NCBI GenBank assembly: GCA_019057795.1
Contig: JAHLWS010000087.1
Span: forward strand, 1 to 64,000
Length of the DNA: 64,000 nucleotides
Reading direction: 5' to 3'
Source: Promethearchaeota archaeon
GTDB taxonomy: Archaea; Asgardarchaeota; Lokiarchaeia; Sigyniarchaeales; SOKP01
Part shown: positions 32,644-56,011 of the stretch, piece by piece
How positions within the stretch are numbered: position 1 is the first letter of the stretch
Layout of the letters: every line of letters starts with the position of its first letter
Notes under the pieces: model-generated
What the model saw: only the letters and a program-made list of their open reading frames with translations
Database searches by the model: none
What the model was told of the DNA's origin: nothing
Program-made: the position numbers and the translations under genes

Positions 32644-32778
32644 CTTAATTTTTTTATCTTATTTATTTATATTATTTTTTTATTTCTCTTATTTTCAAAT
32701 GACTATTTGAATGGATATTCTCACAATATTTTTTTCCTACTCGAAAAATTTAAATATTTCGAGTATATATTTTTTATA

Positions 32779-33030
32779 ATGACCATTCATACTGATACTA
32801 TAATACTAAAAATTGGATCAAAAGGAGAAATCTTTCCTCCCAAGGAAATTCGAAAAAGACTTGGTTTTGAACCAAATCAACCCATTTTATTATATATTCA
32901 TCACGATCAATTAATCATAAGAAAACTTCATTCTATTGAGGAAATTTTGAATTCTTCACCAAAGACTAAAATTAGTTATCACGCTTGGAAACAATTTAAA
33001 GAGGAATTAGGTGAGGACTATGAAATATGA
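32779..33030 (+). CDS. vapB: AbrB/MazE-fold antitoxin (ATG 32779 is more likely than the track start 32707)
   Basis: KIGSKGEIFPPKEIRKRLGF...LIIRK. ATGA overlap with the PIN gene. Confidence 0.82.
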   Translation: MTIHTDTIILKIGSKGEIFPPKEIRKRLGFEPNQPILLYIHHDQLIIRKLHSIEEILNSSPKTKISYHAWKQFKEELGEDYEI

Positions 33031-33530
33031 AAATTCTAATTGATACATCATACTTTTTACCTCTCATTAAAATTGGGATTGAAAATATTCCCCAAACTAC
33101 CTTGGTTAATCTTTTAGCTAAAACATCTTTTGAATATTTTTATTCAAATCTCACTCTTTTTGAACTCACAGCGAAGGGATTAAAAATTTCATCTCAGGAA
33201 AATATAATAACGCCACAAGACATTAGGATTGGAATTGATGCCATTCAAAACGACTCGCGTCTCGTAGAAAAGTCGTTTATTGATAATCCATTAATCATCG
33301 AATTAGCATCTCAATTAAAAGCAATTCATAAAGATACAATTGATTGTTTGATTTTCGCTACAGCTATCTGTATTTGTGATTGTATCGTTACCATGGATGT
33401 ATCATTCTTCGATCAAATCAATAAAGTGCCCTCGTTAATCAATGCAATTAGAAAAATCAATGAAAACTTCCATTTTTGGTTCAACGACCTCTCAGATGAT
33501 TTAAGGGCTCTTAAATCAATTGATTCGTAG
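33027..33530 (+). CDS. vapC: PIN-domain toxin
   Basis: ILIDTSYF, TLFEL, DTIDCLIFATA, IVTMD. Confidence 0.85.
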   Translation: MKILIDTSYFLPLIKIGIENIPQTTLVNLLAKTSFEYFYSNLTLFELTAKGLKISSQENIITPQDIRIGIDAIQNDSRLVEKSFIDNPLIIELASQLKAIHKDTIDCLIFATAICICDCIVTMDVSFFDQINKVPSLINAIRKINENFHFWFNDLSDDLRALKSIDS

Positions 33531-33787
33531 AATGTTCGTATGTTTCAATTTTTTCTTATTTTTATTCAATTTATTTTTAGTATTTCAATTTATATCGTAA
33601 AATCTAAATTTAATAAGAGATAATTACCAGAATTGAAAACAAACTAAGTGAAGAGTAAGAATAATTGAACTTTAATAAGAAGTATTATTTACAATATCAT
33701 TATTATTTAATCAAATACAATTAATACAATTCGTTATAGGATTAAACCTTTAAAATTAGGAGGATACAAATATAAAAGGTGGAAAAA

Positions 33788-35749
33788 TTGTCTGAAGAAC
33801 AGACCAATAGTAAACACAAAATCGGAGCATTTATATGTAGATGAGGAGTTAATATTGGAGGCATTTTAGATGTGCCTAAAATTGTAGAAGAGATTGATAA
33901 ACTCGACGATGTTTGCGCTTATGAGTATTTAAATTTGTGTACTTCTGGAGGAGCTGAATTTATGAAAGAACAAATAGACGAAAAAGGCTTCGACAGAATT
34001 ATCATGGCTGCTTGAACTCCAATAACACATGAACCAGTATTTCACGCTATTTTAAAAGAAGCAGGATTGCCACAGAGATATTTGGAATTTGTCAACATTA
34101 GAGAACATTGTAGTTACGTTCATCAAGCTATGGAAGTAAGAGATGACGCTACACTTAAAGCAATAGAATTAGTAAAAGCAGGGATTTCAAGATCGCAATT
34201 TCTGGAAGAAATACCTACAAAAACAGTTGATGTAAATCCTACATGTTTGGTTATTGGTGGAGGGATTGCTGGCTTAAGTGCTGCAATTGATTTGGGAGAT
34301 GCAGGATATAAAGTTTATTTAGTTGAAAAGAAAACTACCATCGGTGGTCGTATGAGTCAATTAGATCGAACATTTCCGACAGACGATTGCAGTATCTGAA
34401 TATTGGGGCCAAAGATGTTAGAAGCTGATCGGCATCCAAATATAGAAATGCTTACTTATAGTGAAGTAGAAAAAGTCGAAGGATATATAGGTAATTTTCG
34501 AGTTCAAGTAAAAAGAAAAGCGCGATTTGTCATTGAAAGCGAATGTACTGGGTGTGGCGCGTGTACGGAAGTATGTCCGATATACATTCCTAATTATTTT
34601 GATGAAAATCTGTCGGCTCGGAAGTGTATCGATATTTCATTCGCTCAAGCAGTTCCGGCAGTTTACGACATTGCAAGAGAATCGTGTGTAGAATGTTTTG
34701 CATGTGTCGATTCTTGTGATTTGGAAGCAATTGACTTTAGCCAACAAGATGAAATAGTAGAACTTGAAATAGGAACAATAATTGTGGCAACAGGATGGGA
34801 TATATATCAAGAAGACGATTATGGGTACGGAAAATACGAGAATGTAATCACACAAATCCAATTAGAGAGAATCCTTGCTCCAAATGGTCCTATGTTTGGT
34901 CATTTGGTACGCCCCTCAGATGGAAAGCGTCCAAAGAAAATATTATTCATTAACTGCGTAGGATCACGAGATTTAAAAAAGAATGAATATTGTAGCGTAG
35001 TTTGTTGTAATTTATCTGTTAAGAATTCCAAACTTATAATCTCTGAATATCCCGATTCCGAAATTACAGTATGTTATATAGATATGAGATGCGGAGGGAA
35101 GATGTATGAAGAGTATTATAAAAGAGCCAGAGATGCAGGAATTCTTTTTGTTAAAGGGATGATAGGAAGCATAGAAGAAGATCCATTAACACAGAATCTT
35201 ATCGTTCAATTTGAACCTGTTGGAACCGATACAATAGTAAAACTGGAAGTTCATATGGTTATTTTGTCATCGGCATCGCTACCTTCTCAAGGCACAAATG
35301 AAATTGCTGCTATAATGAATATCGAGAAAACATCAGATGGGTTCCTAAAAGAAGTTCATCCACGTTTAGAACCAATCAAGACGAAAGTTCCAGGAATTTA
35401 CTTAGCTGGTTCTTGTCAAGGTCAAAAATCGATTGAACTAACAGTAAGCCAGGCTAAGGGAGCAGCATCTTCAGCAGGCATTCCAATGGGACGAAGAGAA
35501 TACGTTATTGAATTAATACGCGCCCAACCAATAGACGAAAGATGTGCAAAATGCTATAAATGTATTGACGCTTGTCCATACAATGCAATTTCTATTAATG
35601 ATGAAGGAACGATTGTTGTAGATGTAATAAGTTGCAGAGGTTGTGGAATTTGCACTGCAATATGCCCTTCTAAAGCAATAGATTTAGCGCATTACAAAGA
35701 TGTTCAATATTCAGTTTATATTGACGAATTATTGCCTATTGAGGATTAA
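33788..35749 (+). CDS. hdrA: Heterodisulfide reductase subunit A, selenoprotein with 3 Sec (UGA at 33842, 34013, 34397); 653 aa
   Basis: One frame from TTG 33788 (AGGTGG upstream) to TAA 35747-35749. The UGAs fall in FICRUG, MAAUTP and TDDCSIUIL, where HdrA has conserved Cys. This joins track ORFs 34067..34399 and 34403..35749. Also NIREHCSYVH, GGGIAG and two ferredoxin domains. Confidence 0.95.
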
Positions 35750-35762
35750 AGAGGTAATTAAA

Positions 35763-36197
35763 ATGAGAGACAACGATATTAAAATTCTATCCTTTTTATG
35801 TTTAAAATGAGGCTATGGTGCAGCTGATATGGCGGGAACAATTAGAGCTCAATACCCCGTATCTTTAAGAACCGTTTTAGTTCCATGCACAGGAAGAATC
35901 GGTTCAGATGTAATTATGAGAGGTTTTGGGAGAGGTGCTGACGGAATACTCGTTGTAGGATGATACATTGGAGAATGTGATTATGAAAAAGGTAACTATT
36001 TTGCTCATAGATCAATCGCCTATATAAAAGAAGTGCTTAAAACCGTCGGACTTAACCCAAAAAGAATAAAAATGGAATATTGTAGTTCAGCGGAAGGTTC
36101 GAAATATCGGGAAGTAGCAATTGCTTTTGATGAAGAAATACGGAAACTTGGACCGAGCCCATTACGTAAAAAAAAAGAAAACTCCTCTAAAAAATAA
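35763..36197 (+). CDS. mvhD: MvhD/VhuD [2Fe-2S] adaptor subunit, selenoprotein with 2 Sec (UGA at 35808, 35961); 144 aa; absent from the ORF track
   Basis: MRDNDIKILSFLCLKUGYGAADMAGTIRAQYP...VPCTGRI...GADGILVVGUYIGECDYEKGN...SSAEG...LGPSPLR, ending at TAA 36195-36197. Confidence 0.95.
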
Positions 36198-36199
36198 AT

Positions 36200-36258
36200 G
36201 TGTTAGCTAATGAGGCTGAGTTAAAAAAACGAGAATTCAGCTGAAGAAATGGGAGCAC
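36200..36258 (+). ncRNA. Eukaryote-like (Loki-type) SECIS element
   Basis: AUGA 36210-36213; stem GGCUGAGUU (36214-36222) pairs with AAUUCAGCU (36234-36242); A-rich loop AAAAAAACGAG; GA 36243-36244; lower stem GUGUU/AGCAC. It begins 3 nt after the mvhD stop. Confidence 0.88.
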
Positions 36259-36368
36259 CATATAACACATTAAAAAATTTTATAAAAATAAATATATCAA
36301 AAAAAAAAAGTTTAAAATTTTTTAAAAAAATTAAATCAAAAACAAGAAATTAAATTTACAGTTTTGAG

Positions 36369-37508
36369 TTGGAAAACATGGATACAATAGATGAATATCT
36401 AATAAAGATTGAAGATTTTCCTAAATTATTAACAACGTTATTAAAAGAAAAAGTTGTTAGCAAAATAATTGGGACAAAAGTAAAGGTAGATAAAAAAACT
36501 CAGAAAGAGGACAGATTTACGATTTCTCCAGAACTCTACGAGAAACCAGAAGATATTTCGGGTTTTCCCTTAACTAACCTAATTGCATATGGGTACGCTA
36601 GAACAGATTCAGCTGCGAAATTTTTACATAAGTCAGTTAACGGAGCATTGAAAGAAAAAGTAGGACTTATTGCTCGCCCTTGTGACACAAGGGGGATAAT
36701 TGAGTTAGTAAAAATTAGACAGATCAATTTAGATAATCTTTTTATCATTGCTTTTGAAGACAGAGGAATGGTGATAAACGTTTCTCGCCAGATAAAGAAG
36801 ATGGAAGGTATTGATCCGACTAAAGTGGTTAAGGAAAAAATCGGAGATAAGGGTTTAATTCTCAAGTTTGAAGATGGAAGCACTAAAGAAGTAGGATTAG
36901 ACATAGCAGAAAATTGTACGCGCTGTGTTAGAAAAGTTCCGGTTGTTGCTGATTTGGGAATTAGCGATCTAATATTGCCTATCGATTCTGACGAAATAAT
37001 CCTTAAAGTATATTCTACTAAAGGAGAAGAACTTGTAGAAAAATCAAAAATTAACAAGAAGCCATTACCTGATGACATGAAAACAAAAGACGCGGAAAAG
37101 CTTAAAGAAATCAAAGAAACAGCCCTCGCAAAAAGAGTAAAGGATTTAGAAGAATGGGACAAGCTTTCTCAAGAGGAAAAGATGACTAAACTACAAGCAT
37201 GTACTATGTGTGGAATGTGCATTAGAGGATGCCCTGTTTGCTACTGCGTTGACTGTATTCTAACGAAGAAGCGAAAAACAAAAACTATAAATAAAGAGAC
37301 ATATCAATTAACTCGAATTGCCCACGTTGCTGACCGGTGCGTAGAATGTGGCAACTGTGATAATAATTGCCCAACGCATTTACCGTTATCTCTGTACTTT
37401 CAATCGTTAAACGACTCATTTAAAGAAAAGTTTGGTTACAATGCTGGTGAGAGCTTGGAAGATATACCCTTTAGATCTGGGAAAGCAATAAGCGAAATGG
37501 AGTTATAA
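36369..37508 (+). CDS. FdhB/FrhB-like (F420-dependent dehydrogenase beta) subunit with C-terminal 2x[4Fe-4S]
   Basis: GLIARPCD, QINLDNL, ENCTRC, ADL, CTMCGMCIRGCPVCYCVDC, CVECGNCDNNCP. Confidence 0.85.
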   Translation: MENMDTIDEYLIKIEDFPKLLTTLLKEKVVSKIIGTKVKVDKKTQKEDRFTISPELYEKPEDISGFPLTNLIAYGYARTDSAAKFLHKSVNGALKEKVGLIARPCDTRGIIELVKIRQINLDNLFIIAFEDRGMVINVSRQIKKMEGIDPTKVVKEKIGDKGLILKFEDGSTKEVGLDIAENCTRCVRKVPVVADLGISDLILPIDSDEIILKVYSTKGEELVEKSKINKKPLPDDMKTKDAEKLKEIKETALAKRVKDLEEWDKLSQEEKMTKLQACTMCGMCIRGCPVCYCVDCILTKKRKTKTINKETYQLTRIAHVADRCVECGNCDNNCPTHLPLSLYFQSLNDSFKEKFGYNAGESLEDIPFRSGKAISEMEL

Positions 37509-37580: not shown

Positions 37581-38345
37581 ATGTCGTTACCGGCTAAAAA
37601 AGCAATCGAGATTGATTCAAATATTACTCATTACATTTATAAAATGCTAAACCACGAAATGATTCTAAAATACGACGAAAGCAAGTGTATTGAGTGCGGT
37701 TTTTGTCACCGAGTTTGTCCCGTAACCATTTCAATTTACGATGAACCCTTAAAAAAGACGGCAATCGGAACGCCAGAAGAAATGAGGGTAGAGTCTGACA
37801 AAAAAATCGTAGTTGATGTAGAGAAATGCATCTGGTGCGGAAGTTGCACTTGGATCTGTCCTGGATACACTTTGGAACTAATTATAAACGGAGAAAACAA
37901 GATATTATTGGTCGAAAACGGTTCTCTTCCAGAATTTGAGGAAGAGGTTCGCACTTTAGAGAACGGTCAGAAAGTTCGCAAGGTAGTAGAAGGTTCTATT
38001 ACAATTACTTGCGATGAAAAAGATAACAAAGTTATTGACGCATTCGCGGACGAATGTGCTGTTGGCGCTATGTCTCGGGAAGGAAAGGAAGTAGTTGTAG
38101 ACATTGATAAGTGTATTCTATGTTTCAAATGTACAGAAGCCTCAAAGAACTACGATAATATTAGCGTAAAGGTTTTCCGCGATAGATTCAAGAAAGTAAA
38201 AGGAGAACCATCGTCTGTATGGAACGCTATAAATTTGCGAGTGCTTGGAAAAGAAGGAAAAATTAAAGGTATTATGAGTCGAAGTCAAAACAAACTCGCA
38301 GATGCCGTTATGCGCTTATTAGGCAAGGAATTTAGCGAGGAATAA
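37581..38345 (+). CDS. Polyferredoxin-like Fe-S protein (FwdF/MvhB-like)
   Basis: CIECGFCHRVCP, CIWCGSCTWICP and a degenerate third pair (ECAVGA, CILCFKC). Confidence 0.75.
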   Translation: MSLPAKKAIEIDSNITHYIYKMLNHEMILKYDESKCIECGFCHRVCPVTISIYDEPLKKTAIGTPEEMRVESDKKIVVDVEKCIWCGSCTWICPGYTLELIINGENKILLVENGSLPEFEEEVRTLENGQKVRKVVEGSITITCDEKDNKVIDAFADECAVGAMSREGKEVVVDIDKCILCFKCTEASKNYDNISVKVFRDRFKKVKGEPSSVWNAINLRVLGKEGKIKGIMSRSQNKLADAVMRLLGKEFSEE

Positions 38346-53589: not shown

Positions 53590-54663
53590 TTGATGATGAA
53601 TATTGAGAGTATAAAAGTTCTTCAAAAAGAATTATCTTCGCTTATCGGAGTTTCTGGCTATGAAGATGATGTAAGTGATTTTATTTTAAAAAAGATAGAG
53701 AAAGAAAATTTAGTTGATAAGGCTTGGAAAGATAATTTGGGTAATATTCTAGCTGTAATAGAGGGTACTAATGGAAATAACAGAATTCTATTGGATGCGC
53801 ATACTGATGAGATTGGTTTTATGATTTCTCACGTCGAAAAAAAAGGTTTCTTACGATTTGTTCCAATTGGGGGTTGGGATACGAGAATTTTATTAGGACA
53901 AACAGTGGTGATACGATCTGAGCCAGGAAAGATCCATCGTGGCATTATTGGATCGAAACCACCACACCTTACCTCTTTAAACGAGAGAAAAAAGATTGTT
54001 GAGATTTCAGATATGTATATTGATGTCGGGATGGATTCAAAAGAAGAAGTTGTTAGAAATAATATTGATATAGGAACTACCGGTACGCTTTTCTCTCCTT
54101 TTGTAGAATTTCCTAATAACATGGTCCGTGGTAAAGCATTCGACGATCGCACTGGTTGTAATGTGCTCCTTAACATCATGAAATTGTTAAAAGAAGAATC
54201 GCCTGTTAAAGACACGATCCTTTTTAATTTTGCAGTTCAAGAAGAAATAGGAGGTAGAGGTGCGATTACAGGAGCGTTTAATCTTAAACCAACAATTGCT
54301 ATTGCCATAGAAAACACTACTGCTGCGGATGTTCCAGGTATCAAAGAAGCAGAAGTTCCAGCTTACATAGGAAAAGGACCAGCAATCACAGTAGCAGATA
54401 AATCAATAATTTCTAGTCCTAAAGTTAACAAAAGACTCGTAAAAAATGCTGAACTCGACAAAATTCCCTATCAAATTAAGAAACCTATGTATGGCGGGAC
54501 TGATGCAGGTAAGATTCATATTTCCCGAGAAGGTGTTCCAAGTTCAGTCGTATCTGTTCCTTGTAGATATATACATTCTCCCACTTCTTTGCTCAAATTA
54601 GAGGATATTCTTAATACAATTCGTTTAATTAATGCATTTATTCGAAACTCTGCTAATATTTAG
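53590..54663 (+). CDS. M42 family aminopeptidase (TET-like)
   Basis: DAHTDEIG, KAFDDR, QEEIG, GGTDAG, RYIHSP. Confidence 0.93.
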   Translation: MMMNIESIKVLQKELSSLIGVSGYEDDVSDFILKKIEKENLVDKAWKDNLGNILAVIEGTNGNNRILLDAHTDEIGFMISHVEKKGFLRFVPIGGWDTRILLGQTVVIRSEPGKIHRGIIGSKPPHLTSLNERKKIVEISDMYIDVGMDSKEEVVRNNIDIGTTGTLFSPFVEFPNNMVRGKAFDDRTGCNVLLNIMKLLKEESPVKDTILFNFAVQEEIGGRGAITGAFNLKPTIAIAIENTTAADVPGIKEAEVPAYIGKGPAITVADKSIISSPKVNKRLVKNAELDKIPYQIKKPMYGGTDAGKIHISREGVPSSVVSVPCRYIHSPTSLLKLEDILNTIRLINAFIRNSANI

Positions 54664-54712: not shown

Positions 54713-56011
54713 TTATTTTGGTGGTTTAATTAAGTACGCTAAGATTGCTGATCCAACTGACATTATTCCCATTACAATAAATAATATCAAATAGCTCCCA
54801 AAAATAGTAACAAATAAATTCACACCAACAGCACCAATAAATCCTGCAACACCATAAGCGGTAAAGACAATTCCATAATTAGGACCTAAATTCTTTGAGC
54901 CAAACAAATCAGCAGTAGCAGTAGGGAATAAACTGAAATTACCTCCGAAGCAGAAATATATTGCACATGTTATTGTTAAGAAATATATCTCGCTGACATT
55001 CGTTGTAAAGTAGATAAACATGAGGATTGCTTGAATCGTAAACATTACCAGCATAGATTTTTTATAGGTTATCATATCTGCTAGTTTCCCCCAAACTATT
55101 CTACCTAATCCGTTGAATAAAGCTGCTAAACTCCCAATTAATACGAAATCACTGATTCCAATCGCATAAATGAAGTTATCTCCAACATCAACAGATTTAG
55201 CAAAAGCAGCGTACGATCCAATTACCATTAAACCAGACATCGCGCTTAACGCAAAGGCTGTCCAAAGCATCCAAAATTGAGGTAATTTTACAGTTTGACC
55301 CCGCTCGAATTCTAACCCTGAAATTCCACTCTCTTCGGAAGGAGGTGGAGGTATCCATCCTACAGGCTTCCATCCTTCAGGAGGATTACTCAAGGTCATT
55401 GCTCCTCCAATAACAAGAACGATGTATACTATTCCTAAAACGATAAACATCATTGGGATATTTTGCGAAACTGTAGCAACAAAGTTTAGATCGGTAGTTT
55501 CTAATCCTGTTGGGTTAACTAATGATTTAATTACATAATTGAAAACGAAGGCGCCTGCTCCAAATCCAGCGACCGCGATTCCGTTAATAAATCCTTTTTT
55601 ATCCGGAAACCATTTACCAGCTGAAGCAATTGGACACACATAACCGAAACCAATGCCAGCACCAAATATAACACCATAAGTAATTAAAAATCCTATAAAA
55701 GTAGTCATAAAAGCGCTTGATATCAAGCCAATTCCAATCAAAATCCCACCTAAGATCGCGATCTTTTTCGGACCGTGTTTTTGCTGCAATTTGCCCGCAA
55801 AAATCATCGTAATCGCAAAGGTTAATAAACCTACTCCAAAAATATATACTGTAAGCTCTCTAGCCTCACCTAAATAAGGGCTGAGGAAGATGGTGAGAGT
55901 TCCCCAAGAGTATATCGTGCCTAACGCTAACTGTATAAGAATAGCTCCTATTACAACAATCCATCGATTTCTAACTTTTTGTTCTTTTTGTTCAGTCGAC
56001 ATTTTCTTCAA
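54713..56011 (-). CDS. OFA family MFS transporter (oxalate/formate or lactate type)
   Basis: GTIYSW, KWFPDKKG, FNGLGRIVWG, GGNFSLFP, NYGIVF. Confidence 0.9.
   Translation of the reverse strand: MKKMSTEQKEQKVRNRWIVVIGAILIQLALGTIYSWGTLTIFLSPYLGEARELTVYIFGVGLLTFAITMIFAGKLQQKHGPKKIAILGGILIGIGLISSAFMTTFIGFLITYGVIFGAGIGFGYVCPIASAGKWFPDKKGFINGIAVAGFGAGAFVFNYVIKSLVNPTGLETTDLNFVATVSQNIPMMFIVLGIVYIVLVIGGAMTLSNPPEGWKPVGWIPPPPSEESGISGLEFERGQTVKLPQFWMLWTAFALSAMSGLMVIGSYAAFAKSVDVGDNFIYAIGISDFVLIGSLAALFNGLGRIVWGKLADMITYKKSMLVMFTIQAILMFIYFTTNVSEIYFLTITCAIYFCFGGNFSLFPTATADLFGSKNLGPNYGIVFTAYGVAGFIGAVGVNLFVTIFGSYLILFIVMGIMSVGSAILAYLIKPPK

Follow-up and report, generated by a model that had tools for sequence, protein, structure and literature searches.

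A single lokiSECIS predicted to recode five in-frame UGA codons across the two cistrons of an hdrA-mvhD gene pair in an Asgard archaeon

Introduction

The closest described systems are the HdrA-VhuD gene tandems of Lokiarchaeota. All of these tandems were reported to carry a single lokiSECIS located after VhuD, and the two genes were considered most likely to lie on one polycistronic mRNA, with one SECIS for up to six UGAs over ~2 kb (Mariotti et al. 2016, Mol Biol Evol, PMC4989117). The same study had already pointed out that HdrA never ends in UGA, and the published lokiSECIS have GA as their 3' dinucleotide, but AA in VhuU (PMC4989117). Its main text, figures and supplement aside, describes the core hairpin only, i.e., no lower stem, C-stem, or 3' mini-hairpin (PMC4989117). 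In a more recent survey of >400 Asgard genomes, hdrA and frhD were always adjacent and almost always shared one eSECIS-like structure (Huang, Xiao and Zhang 2024, ISME J, PMC11227280). The words hairpin and three-way are absent from the text of that paper (figures and supplement aside; PMC11227280).

Other archaeal SECIS provide further points of comparison. As the 2016 discussion reads, methanogen hdrA has its own SECIS (PMC4989117). In Methanococcus maripaludis, an archaeal SECIS works in cis over 520-679 nt (PMC9622424). A lokiSECIS construct introduced into this species was inactive (i.e., background activity); the construct was vhuU.2, with a predicted folding energy of -6.9 kcal/mol, apparently as a bare hairpin (PMC11881835).

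Here, we analyzed an hdrA-mvhD pair with five in-frame UGAs and a single SECIS-like element. We compared the element with paralogous elements of the same genome and with 80 orthologous loci from other Asgard metagenome-assembled genomes (MAGs).

Results

Gene content of the locus

The window (i.e., the whole 64,000-nt stretch of DNA that was analyzed) derives from one contig (C87) of a 4.95-Mb MAG with 31% G+C. The nearest public relative at the hdrA-mvhD locus is "Promethearchaeota archaeon Loki_b31," with which HdrA is 98% and MvhD 90% identical. The genes and in-frame UGAs of the locus are as follows.

32707-33530, + strand: MazE/AbrB-like antitoxin gene overlapping a PIN-domain gene (VapBC-type pair), directly 5' of the hdrA promoter region
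Between the VapB/PIN-like pair and hdrA: A+T-rich spacer, 257 nt
33788-35749, + strand: hdrA (heterodisulfide reductase subunit A type), 653 codons, TTG start, TAA stop
33842-33844, 34013-34015, and 34397-34399, + strand: in-frame UGAs of hdrA at codons 19, 76, and 204 (from the translation)
35763-36197, + strand: mvhD/vhuD/frhD (FlpD family), 144 codons, ATG start, TAA stop
35808-35810 and 35961-35963, + strand: in-frame UGAs of mvhD at codons 16 and 67 (from the translation)
36379-37508, + strand: FrhB/FdhB-like Fe-S protein gene, TAA stop (from Pfam)
37581-38345, + strand: 4Fe-4S polyferredoxin-like gene, TAA stop (from Pfam)

According to Pfam, HdrA contains FAD/NAD-binding and 4Fe-4S domains, and MvhD matches PF02662 (E = 1e-40). 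The TTG start of hdrA is preceded by GGUGG. Upstream of hdrA (33750-33787), the orthologue group keeps two Shine-Dalgarno-like motifs, UUAGGAGG ~30 nt and AGGUG ~9 nt before the start. The hdrA stop (35747-35749) and the mvhD ATG (35763) are separated by the 13 nt given in the original prediction, and this gap holds a GAGGU Shine-Dalgarno-like motif.

Core and upper stem of the element

Directly after mvhD lies an element with the following parts.

36197-36271, + strand: whole SECIS (lokiSECIS), 75 nt, three-way junction (from the minimum free energy [MFE] fold and the covariance model [CM] match)
36197-36205 and 36263-36271, + strand: lower stem P1, 5' strand AAUGUGUUA, partner UAACACAUU (from the MFE fold)
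36207-36213, + strand: predicted kink-turn 5' strand
36210-36213, + strand: AUGA, 12 nt after the mvhD stop, invariant in 29 aligned orthologues
36214-36222 and 36234-36242, + strand: upper stem P2, 9 bp, GGCUGAGUU/AAUUCAGCU, with compensatory changes
36223-36233, + strand: apical loop, 11 nt, AAAAAAACGAG, with an A-rich start and a terminal G preceded by A
36243-36244 and 36245-36246, + strand: 3' core GA, then AG (C-stem 3' strand)
36249-36261, + strand: mini-hairpin P3, AUGG/CCAU stem, loop GAGCA with GC at 36255-36256 (from the MFE fold; 99% paired in orthologues)

The AUGA/GA core, the 9-bp upper stem, and the A-rich loop of the original prediction were all found in place, both in the sequence and in the MFE fold. 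The element folds beyond chance (-19.7 kcal/mol; z, -4.7), and none of 200 shuffles folded as well. A CM built from the orthologues matched 36196-36273 with 96.2 bits (E = 2.7e-27), which was the only significant match in the 64 kb. Among 29 diverse orthologues, compensatory changes occurred at eight of the nine upper-stem pairs. The covariation score of this stem was reached by no shuffle, and slid controls collapsed to 33-42% pairing. Regarding pattern searches, a strict lokiSECIS pattern occurred 12 times in the genome versus 0 times in a reversed-sequence control. A broad ATGA...GA pattern had no discriminating value, since shuffles matched it more often.

Base of the element

The base of the element differed from the original prediction, which had a GUGUU/AGCAC lower stem and an end at 36258. 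That stem showed no covariation, two of its five pairs were broken in 9 to 11 of the 29 orthologues, and it was absent from the MFE fold, where it overlaps the mini-hairpin at 36249-36261. The supported lower stem is P1, which extends the SECIS to 36271. P1 begins on the final A of the mvhD stop codon, 81% of its cells were paired across the 29 orthologues, and equivalent stems with unrelated sequences were present in paralogous elements.

Between P1 and the upper stem, the sequence has the layout of a standard kink-turn, i.e., a C-stem (C36207-G36246 and U36208-A36245), a 3-nt bulge (A36209, A36210, and U36211), and tandem sheared G.A/A.G pairs (G36212 and A36213 with A36244 and G36243) that open the NC-stem. 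A kink-turn is thereby predicted at the level of sequence. Of 132 distinct elements, 131 had a Watson-Crick or G-U pair flanking the 3-nt bulge. In the present group this pair was UA or UG, two other groups had GC, and CG was seen a single time. The upper-stem pair next to the core G.A tandem was often noncanonical, both in the orthologues and in the group of mvhD elements that includes the one on contig C5 (C5-type), as is expected in a K-turn.

The three-helix shape was present in 67 of 71 orthologues of this locus, in 26 of 33 PrxL elements, and in 34 of 40 C5-type mvhD elements, and in the C5-type group four of the five side-hairpin pairs covaried. The lokiSECIS of this genome sit behind hdrA-mvhD pairs, prxL, vhuU, and small open reading frames (ORFs), and the shape recurs among them with unrelated sequences. 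Under strict criteria, 8 of 10 independent elements of the genome had it, versus 16% of flank shuffles. With a GC in the side-hairpin loop as an additional criterion, the figures were 8 of 10 versus 3.4% (P ~7e-11).

Judging from the folding model and these comparisons, the element probably forms a three-way junction (lower stem, kink-turn with a short C-stem, and GC-loop mini-hairpin) rather than a simple stem. The Asgard "eSECIS-like type I" model consists of a core, an upper stem, and an apical loop only (PMC11227280), and the present element has more arms. The three-way kink-turn junction may be the only part of our description that goes beyond the published text of the lokiSECIS papers. 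A kink-turn set in a three-way junction (K-junction) has reportedly been described by the Lilley laboratory in the TPP riboswitch. The likeness to the K-junction, which is one of sequence and secondary structure only, comprises the tandem G.A core, the 3-nt bulge, and a short C-helix running into a three-way junction. Tentatively, and at a little under even odds, we suggest that the functional lokiSECIS is a k-junction of ~75 nt rather than the published 35-nt hairpin, with its kink-turn C-helix running into the three-way junction and a third arm, presenting a conserved GC, as a second determinant. Under this k-junction reading, the GC mini-hairpin arm would be a second recognition determinant for an SBP2-independent factor.

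Comparison with known SECIS systems

The locus shares with the tandems of Mariotti et al. (2016) the gene pair and its order, a very short gap, a multi-Sec HdrA that includes the canonical position near 200, and two Sec positions in VhuD. The element likewise has every feature by which a lokiSECIS is recognized, i.e., AUGA, a 9-bp stem, an 11-nt loop that is A rich (A's first) and ends in AG, with its terminal G, GA on the 3' side, a position close behind a selenoprotein gene, and a single copy after VhuD. It differs only by the genome and by the 3+2 pattern of UGAs, which is nothing essential.

With eukaryotic SECIS type I (RF00031), the element shares the non-Watson-Crick AUGA/GA core, the A-rich loop, a position 3' of the coding sequence (CDS), and the predicted action over kilobases. 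It nevertheless gave no match to the eukaryotic family (SECIS_1) at E <= 10, and its 9-bp upper helix is shorter than the eukaryotic helix II. The internal loop of eukaryotic SECIS is replaced here by the short C-stem and three-way junction, and the predicted service to two cistrons is absent in eukaryotic mRNAs.

The SECIS of Methanococcales and Methanopyrus are likewise archaeal and 3' of the gene; the methanogen VhuD SECIS serves two UGAs and also carries AUGA and GAC/AAC. Unlike these elements, in which a GAA/A asymmetric bulge joins a long lower stem to a short, G+C upper one, the present element has no such bulge. It also differs from bacterial SECIS, which form a hairpin directly after each UGA inside the CDS.

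Other elements in the genome

Several further elements of this genome were noted. A 74-codon ORF on contig C26 (C26:~53900-54200; L006) is a candidate small membrane selenoprotein: its in-frame UGA lies in the sequence GGGULC, one membrane helix is predicted, and a lokiSECIS follows 3 nt behind it. Elements with the lokiSECIS pattern also lie behind short UGA-containing ORFs at C63:23698-23732 (- strand), C24:23574-23608 (- strand), and C78:176805-176839 (+ strand); the C63 ORF has several UGAs and a CPFC...CQNC zinc-ribbon-like pattern. In the C22 hdrA-mvhD pair (C22:32532-32566; L001), the UGA within the AUGA core is apparently the mvhD stop, an arrangement that has been published for VhuU.1. 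ARAGORN called an intron-containing tRNA with anticodon CUA ("tRNA-Pyl") at C52:77837-77940 (- strand), which could be a false call.

Position of the element within the transcript

Behind the element lies the following spacer.

36272-36378, + strand: A+T-rich spacer, 107 nt, from the SECIS to the FrhB-like gene

In this spacer, a T4 run occurs 8 nt after the element and a T6 run at 36321-36326, together with TATA-like stretches. Such features would suit a 3'-untranslated region (3'-UTR) element that ends a bicistronic hdrA-mvhD mRNA, with a separate promoter in the 107-nt spacer for the FrhB-like and ferredoxin genes, and all published lokiSECIS were described at gene ends. However, conservation of the T6 run does not extend even to the closest relatives. 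Among the orthologous spacers, only 27 of 68 had a run of T>=5, versus 79% of the co-directional spacers of 90-220 nt in this genome. In 76 of 80 loci, an FrhB-like match followed the SECIS (in 70 of them beginning <=400 nt from the AUGA), which also speaks against such an end. Both downstream genes seldom ended in UGA across the orthologues (2 of 70 for one and 1 of 25 for the other, versus 12.9% of long ORFs in the genome), although the loci are not independent. We regard a 3' end at the element as a serious alternative with somewhat less than an even chance.

A SECIS internal to the operon, as in the original prediction, is plausible, and the FrhB-like and polyferredoxin-like genes are possible further cistrons of the hdrA-mvhD unit. 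The TAA stops of these genes, which had been read as consistent with UGA avoidance, turned out to be uninformative because TAA ends 72.5% of the long ORFs in the genome. An alignment of the spacers showed a conserved UUGAGUUGGAA motif just before the FrhB-like ATG, a further point in favor of an internal position. Within the FrhB-like CDS of some orthologues, a SECIS-like pattern (AUGA, a 9-bp stem with one mismatch, an A-rich loop, and AA) occurs ~810-830 nt downstream of the true SECIS (L019:4282, L044:4300, L048:4281, L062:4281, L064:4317, and L075:4312); the window has no AUGA there. This pattern is probably a by-product of conserved coding sequence.

One element per locus

The element after mvhD was the only one found at the locus. 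With filters off, the CM detected no second SECIS in or before hdrA at E <= 10 (33000-36195, + strand). In 79 of the 80 orthologous loci, each searched with ~3 kb of upstream flank, there was exactly one strong CM match, always just after mvhD. Although built from the orthologues of this locus only, the CM also picked up the nine paralogous elements of the genome, eight of them with E <= 0.02 and one with E = 0.63; the CM is therefore sensitive. A whole-genome CM search, in which 150 of 8029 candidates were scored, missed known paralogues and says nothing on absence. The single copy is matched by co-occurrence: in this genome, the element was present in four of four Sec-type hdrA-mvhD pairs versus none of eight Cys-type mvhD genes, even under a loose model.

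Other searches agreed with the CM in finding no further signal, as the original prediction had it. None of the Rfam SECIS families reached its gathering score in the window or E <= 10 in 33500-36500, and a pattern scan found no methanogen-type GAA/A SECIS in 33400-36500 (+ strand). For none of the five UGAs did the following 70 nt fold into a significant bacterial-type hairpin (z, -1.8 to +0.5). The only two Rfam matches at E <= 10 were chance sRNA/snoRNA matches. A weak CM match at 55508-55572 (17.6 bits) lies within a minus-strand ORF of 432 codons, has a poor upper stem, and was rejected as chance. The CM also matched other genes, close to the orthologous loci or beyond them, at L089:4726-4799 (- strand; 40 bits), L082:5672-5740 (- strand; 21 bits), and C77:191188-191258 (+ strand; 22 bits).

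The start of hdrA offered the one point in favor of a differently shaped signal in or before hdrA itself, with the element after mvhD left for mvhD only. The first 15 codons, just before UGA19, showed very strong synonymous suppression (synonymous-site entropy z = -6.6 below the gene mean) and contain a conserved motif, as follows.

33790-33804 (stem, 33790-33794 and 33800-33804), + strand: GUCUG-AAGAA-CAGAC palindrome or hairpin, including the G of the hdrA start codon, conserved

The opening codons UUG-UCU-GAA-GAA-CAG-ACC thus contain GUCUG-N5-CAGAC. The whole 4.95-Mb genome has just two copies of this motif, each at the start of a Sec-hdrA gene. Within the palindrome, TCT, CAG, and ACC are invariant as codons; of these, CAG (18%) and ACC (14%) are rare. 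At the hdrA start, 71 of the 80 orthologous loci and 34 of 40 C5-type loci had the motif. It has no SECIS features, however, and it is absent from two other Sec-type hdrA genes (C22 and C42), each with a single downstream element; it is therefore not a recoding signal common to such genes. The motif could act as RNA, as a hairpin at the start codon, or as DNA, as an operator, and no complementarity to the SECIS region was seen by eye. Elsewhere in hdrA, no window of suppressed synonymous change was found beyond the two ends of the gene; at the 3' end, the reduced synonymous variation overlaps the mvhD ribosome-binding site. Together with the lack of CM, Rfam, and GAA/A-type matches in hdrA and of significant structure after any UGA, this makes a separate hdrA signal very improbable, and RNAz had found none in the 2016 study (PMC4989117).

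In-frame UGAs and selenocysteine machinery

When the hdrA and mvhD copies of the genome were aligned, every one of the five UGAs corresponded to Cys in the Cys-type paralogues, and the three other Sec-type hdrA-mvhD pairs (contigs C22, C42, and C5, with 4+2, 2+2, and 2+2 UGAs, respectively) also had UGA there. Both mvhD UGAs fall in Cys columns of eight Cys-type paralogues and were kept in 80 of 80 orthologues. For hdrA, UGA19 and UGA204 were present in every full-length orthologue among the 80 orthologous loci, UGA76 was present in 22, and a UGA at codon 51 was present in a few. UGA is also an ordinary stop in this genome, ending 12.9% of long ORFs.

The genome encodes selenocysteine (Sec) machinery. 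A SepSecS gene (C73:91991-93292; 484 bits) scored above the curated cutoff. An EFSec-like gene (C73:87659-88561; 232 bits), just under the bacterial SelB cutoff, lies 3 kb upstream of SepSecS and the tRNA-like gene beside it, and a PSTK-like gene scored 143 bits, below its cutoff. The tRNA-like gene, directly upstream of SepSecS (C73:~91806-91912), carries the anticodon UCA in the loop CUUCAAA; its variable arm is long, and its T-arm apparently contains an insertion. ARAGORN called no tRNA-Sec in the genome, and all Rfam tRNA-Sec matches were below threshold; this UCA tRNA-like gene is one of them (28 bits).

The conservation of the Cys-aligned UGAs, the Sec machinery, and the use of UGA as an ordinary stop therefore argue for selenocysteine codons rather than a reassigned code or decay, and we interpret all five UGAs as such codons. 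It is very improbable that they are something else, i.e., that the genes are pseudogenes or that UGA is generally reassigned or read through: the UGAs are kept over about 80 orthologues with intact frames, in-frame UGAs occur only at conserved Cys positions, and the element strictly co-occurs with UGA-containing pairs.

Known archaeal and eukaryotic SECIS act in cis, and an hdrA-mvhD gap of 13-20 nt, as observed in every one of the 80 orthologous loci, leaves no room for a terminator and a promoter; separate hdrA and mvhD transcripts, with the SECIS acting on the hdrA mRNA in trans, are for these reasons hardly credible.

Discussion

Every comparative test that we ran agreed with a single eukaryote-like SECIS, located after mvhD, that serves the UGAs of both genes on a shared mRNA. 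Given the anatomy of the element, its single occurrence at the locus, the conservation and covariation that it shows, and its joint occurrence with genes that contain UGAs, we infer, with a probability of roughly 0.85, that hdrA and mvhD share an mRNA on which the lokiSECIS after mvhD recodes the UGAs of both. The original prediction offered recoding across a cistron boundary as an inference of its own; the reading held, but it was not new, being explicit in the 2016 study that the prediction itself cited (PMC4989117) and present also in that of Huang et al. (2024). The phenomenon of one SECIS for two cistrons is already known, having been published in 2016, and this locus is a textbook example of it.

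We propose the following course of events. The hdrA and mvhD genes would be transcribed as one mRNA, in which the kink-turn core (AUGA/GA, 2-bp C-stem, and 3-nt bulge) would fold under the 9-bp helix and its A-rich loop within a three-way junction. The folded SECIS would then recruit the archaeal Sec-specific elongation factor with Sec-tRNA(Sec), directly or via an adaptor. Since no SBP2 homologue has been reported in Asgard archaea (PMC4989117), such an adaptor, if any, would be other than SBP2. Ribosomes on the same mRNA would read UGA as Sec at the hdrA sites 2.37, 2.20, and 1.81 kb upstream of the element and at the mvhD sites 0.40 and 0.25 kb upstream. As the original prediction had estimated, the first UGA is ~2.37 kb away (2368 nt before the AUGA), with the TAA stops of hdrA and mvhD in between. 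If the hdrA UGAs are served from behind mvhD, the element acts past the hdrA stop and across the 13 nt between the cistrons.

The stop codons of the two genes bear on this scheme. The hdrA stop was UAA or UAG in 80 of 80 loci, versus the 12.9% of long ORFs that end in UGA, and mvhD ended in UGA in 6 of 80 loci, with its stop 12-22 nt from the core; these statistics are only suggestive because the orthologues are not independent. With the mvhD stop here 12 nt from the core, each terminating ribosome would therefore have to melt the lower stem, and such melting could explain why stops so close are not recoded.

For annotation, the element should read 36197-36271, and the lower stem, the C-stem, and the side hairpin with its GC loop define the construct for testing. 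If the k-junction reading is true, the extra arm may permit recoding over kilobases and across cistrons, and its absence could explain why the bare core failed in M. maripaludis. The single element in 79 of 80 loci, the co-occurrence in four of four versus none of eight genes, and the 0 of 80 hdrA genes with UGA stops provide a firmer basis for the published inference, and the locus adds another clean example, with 3+2 UGAs. Cross-cistron recoding of UGAs over kilobases from one SECIS is unique to Asgard archaea and, as was pointed out in 2016, bears on the origin of the eukaryotic 3'-UTR SECIS system.
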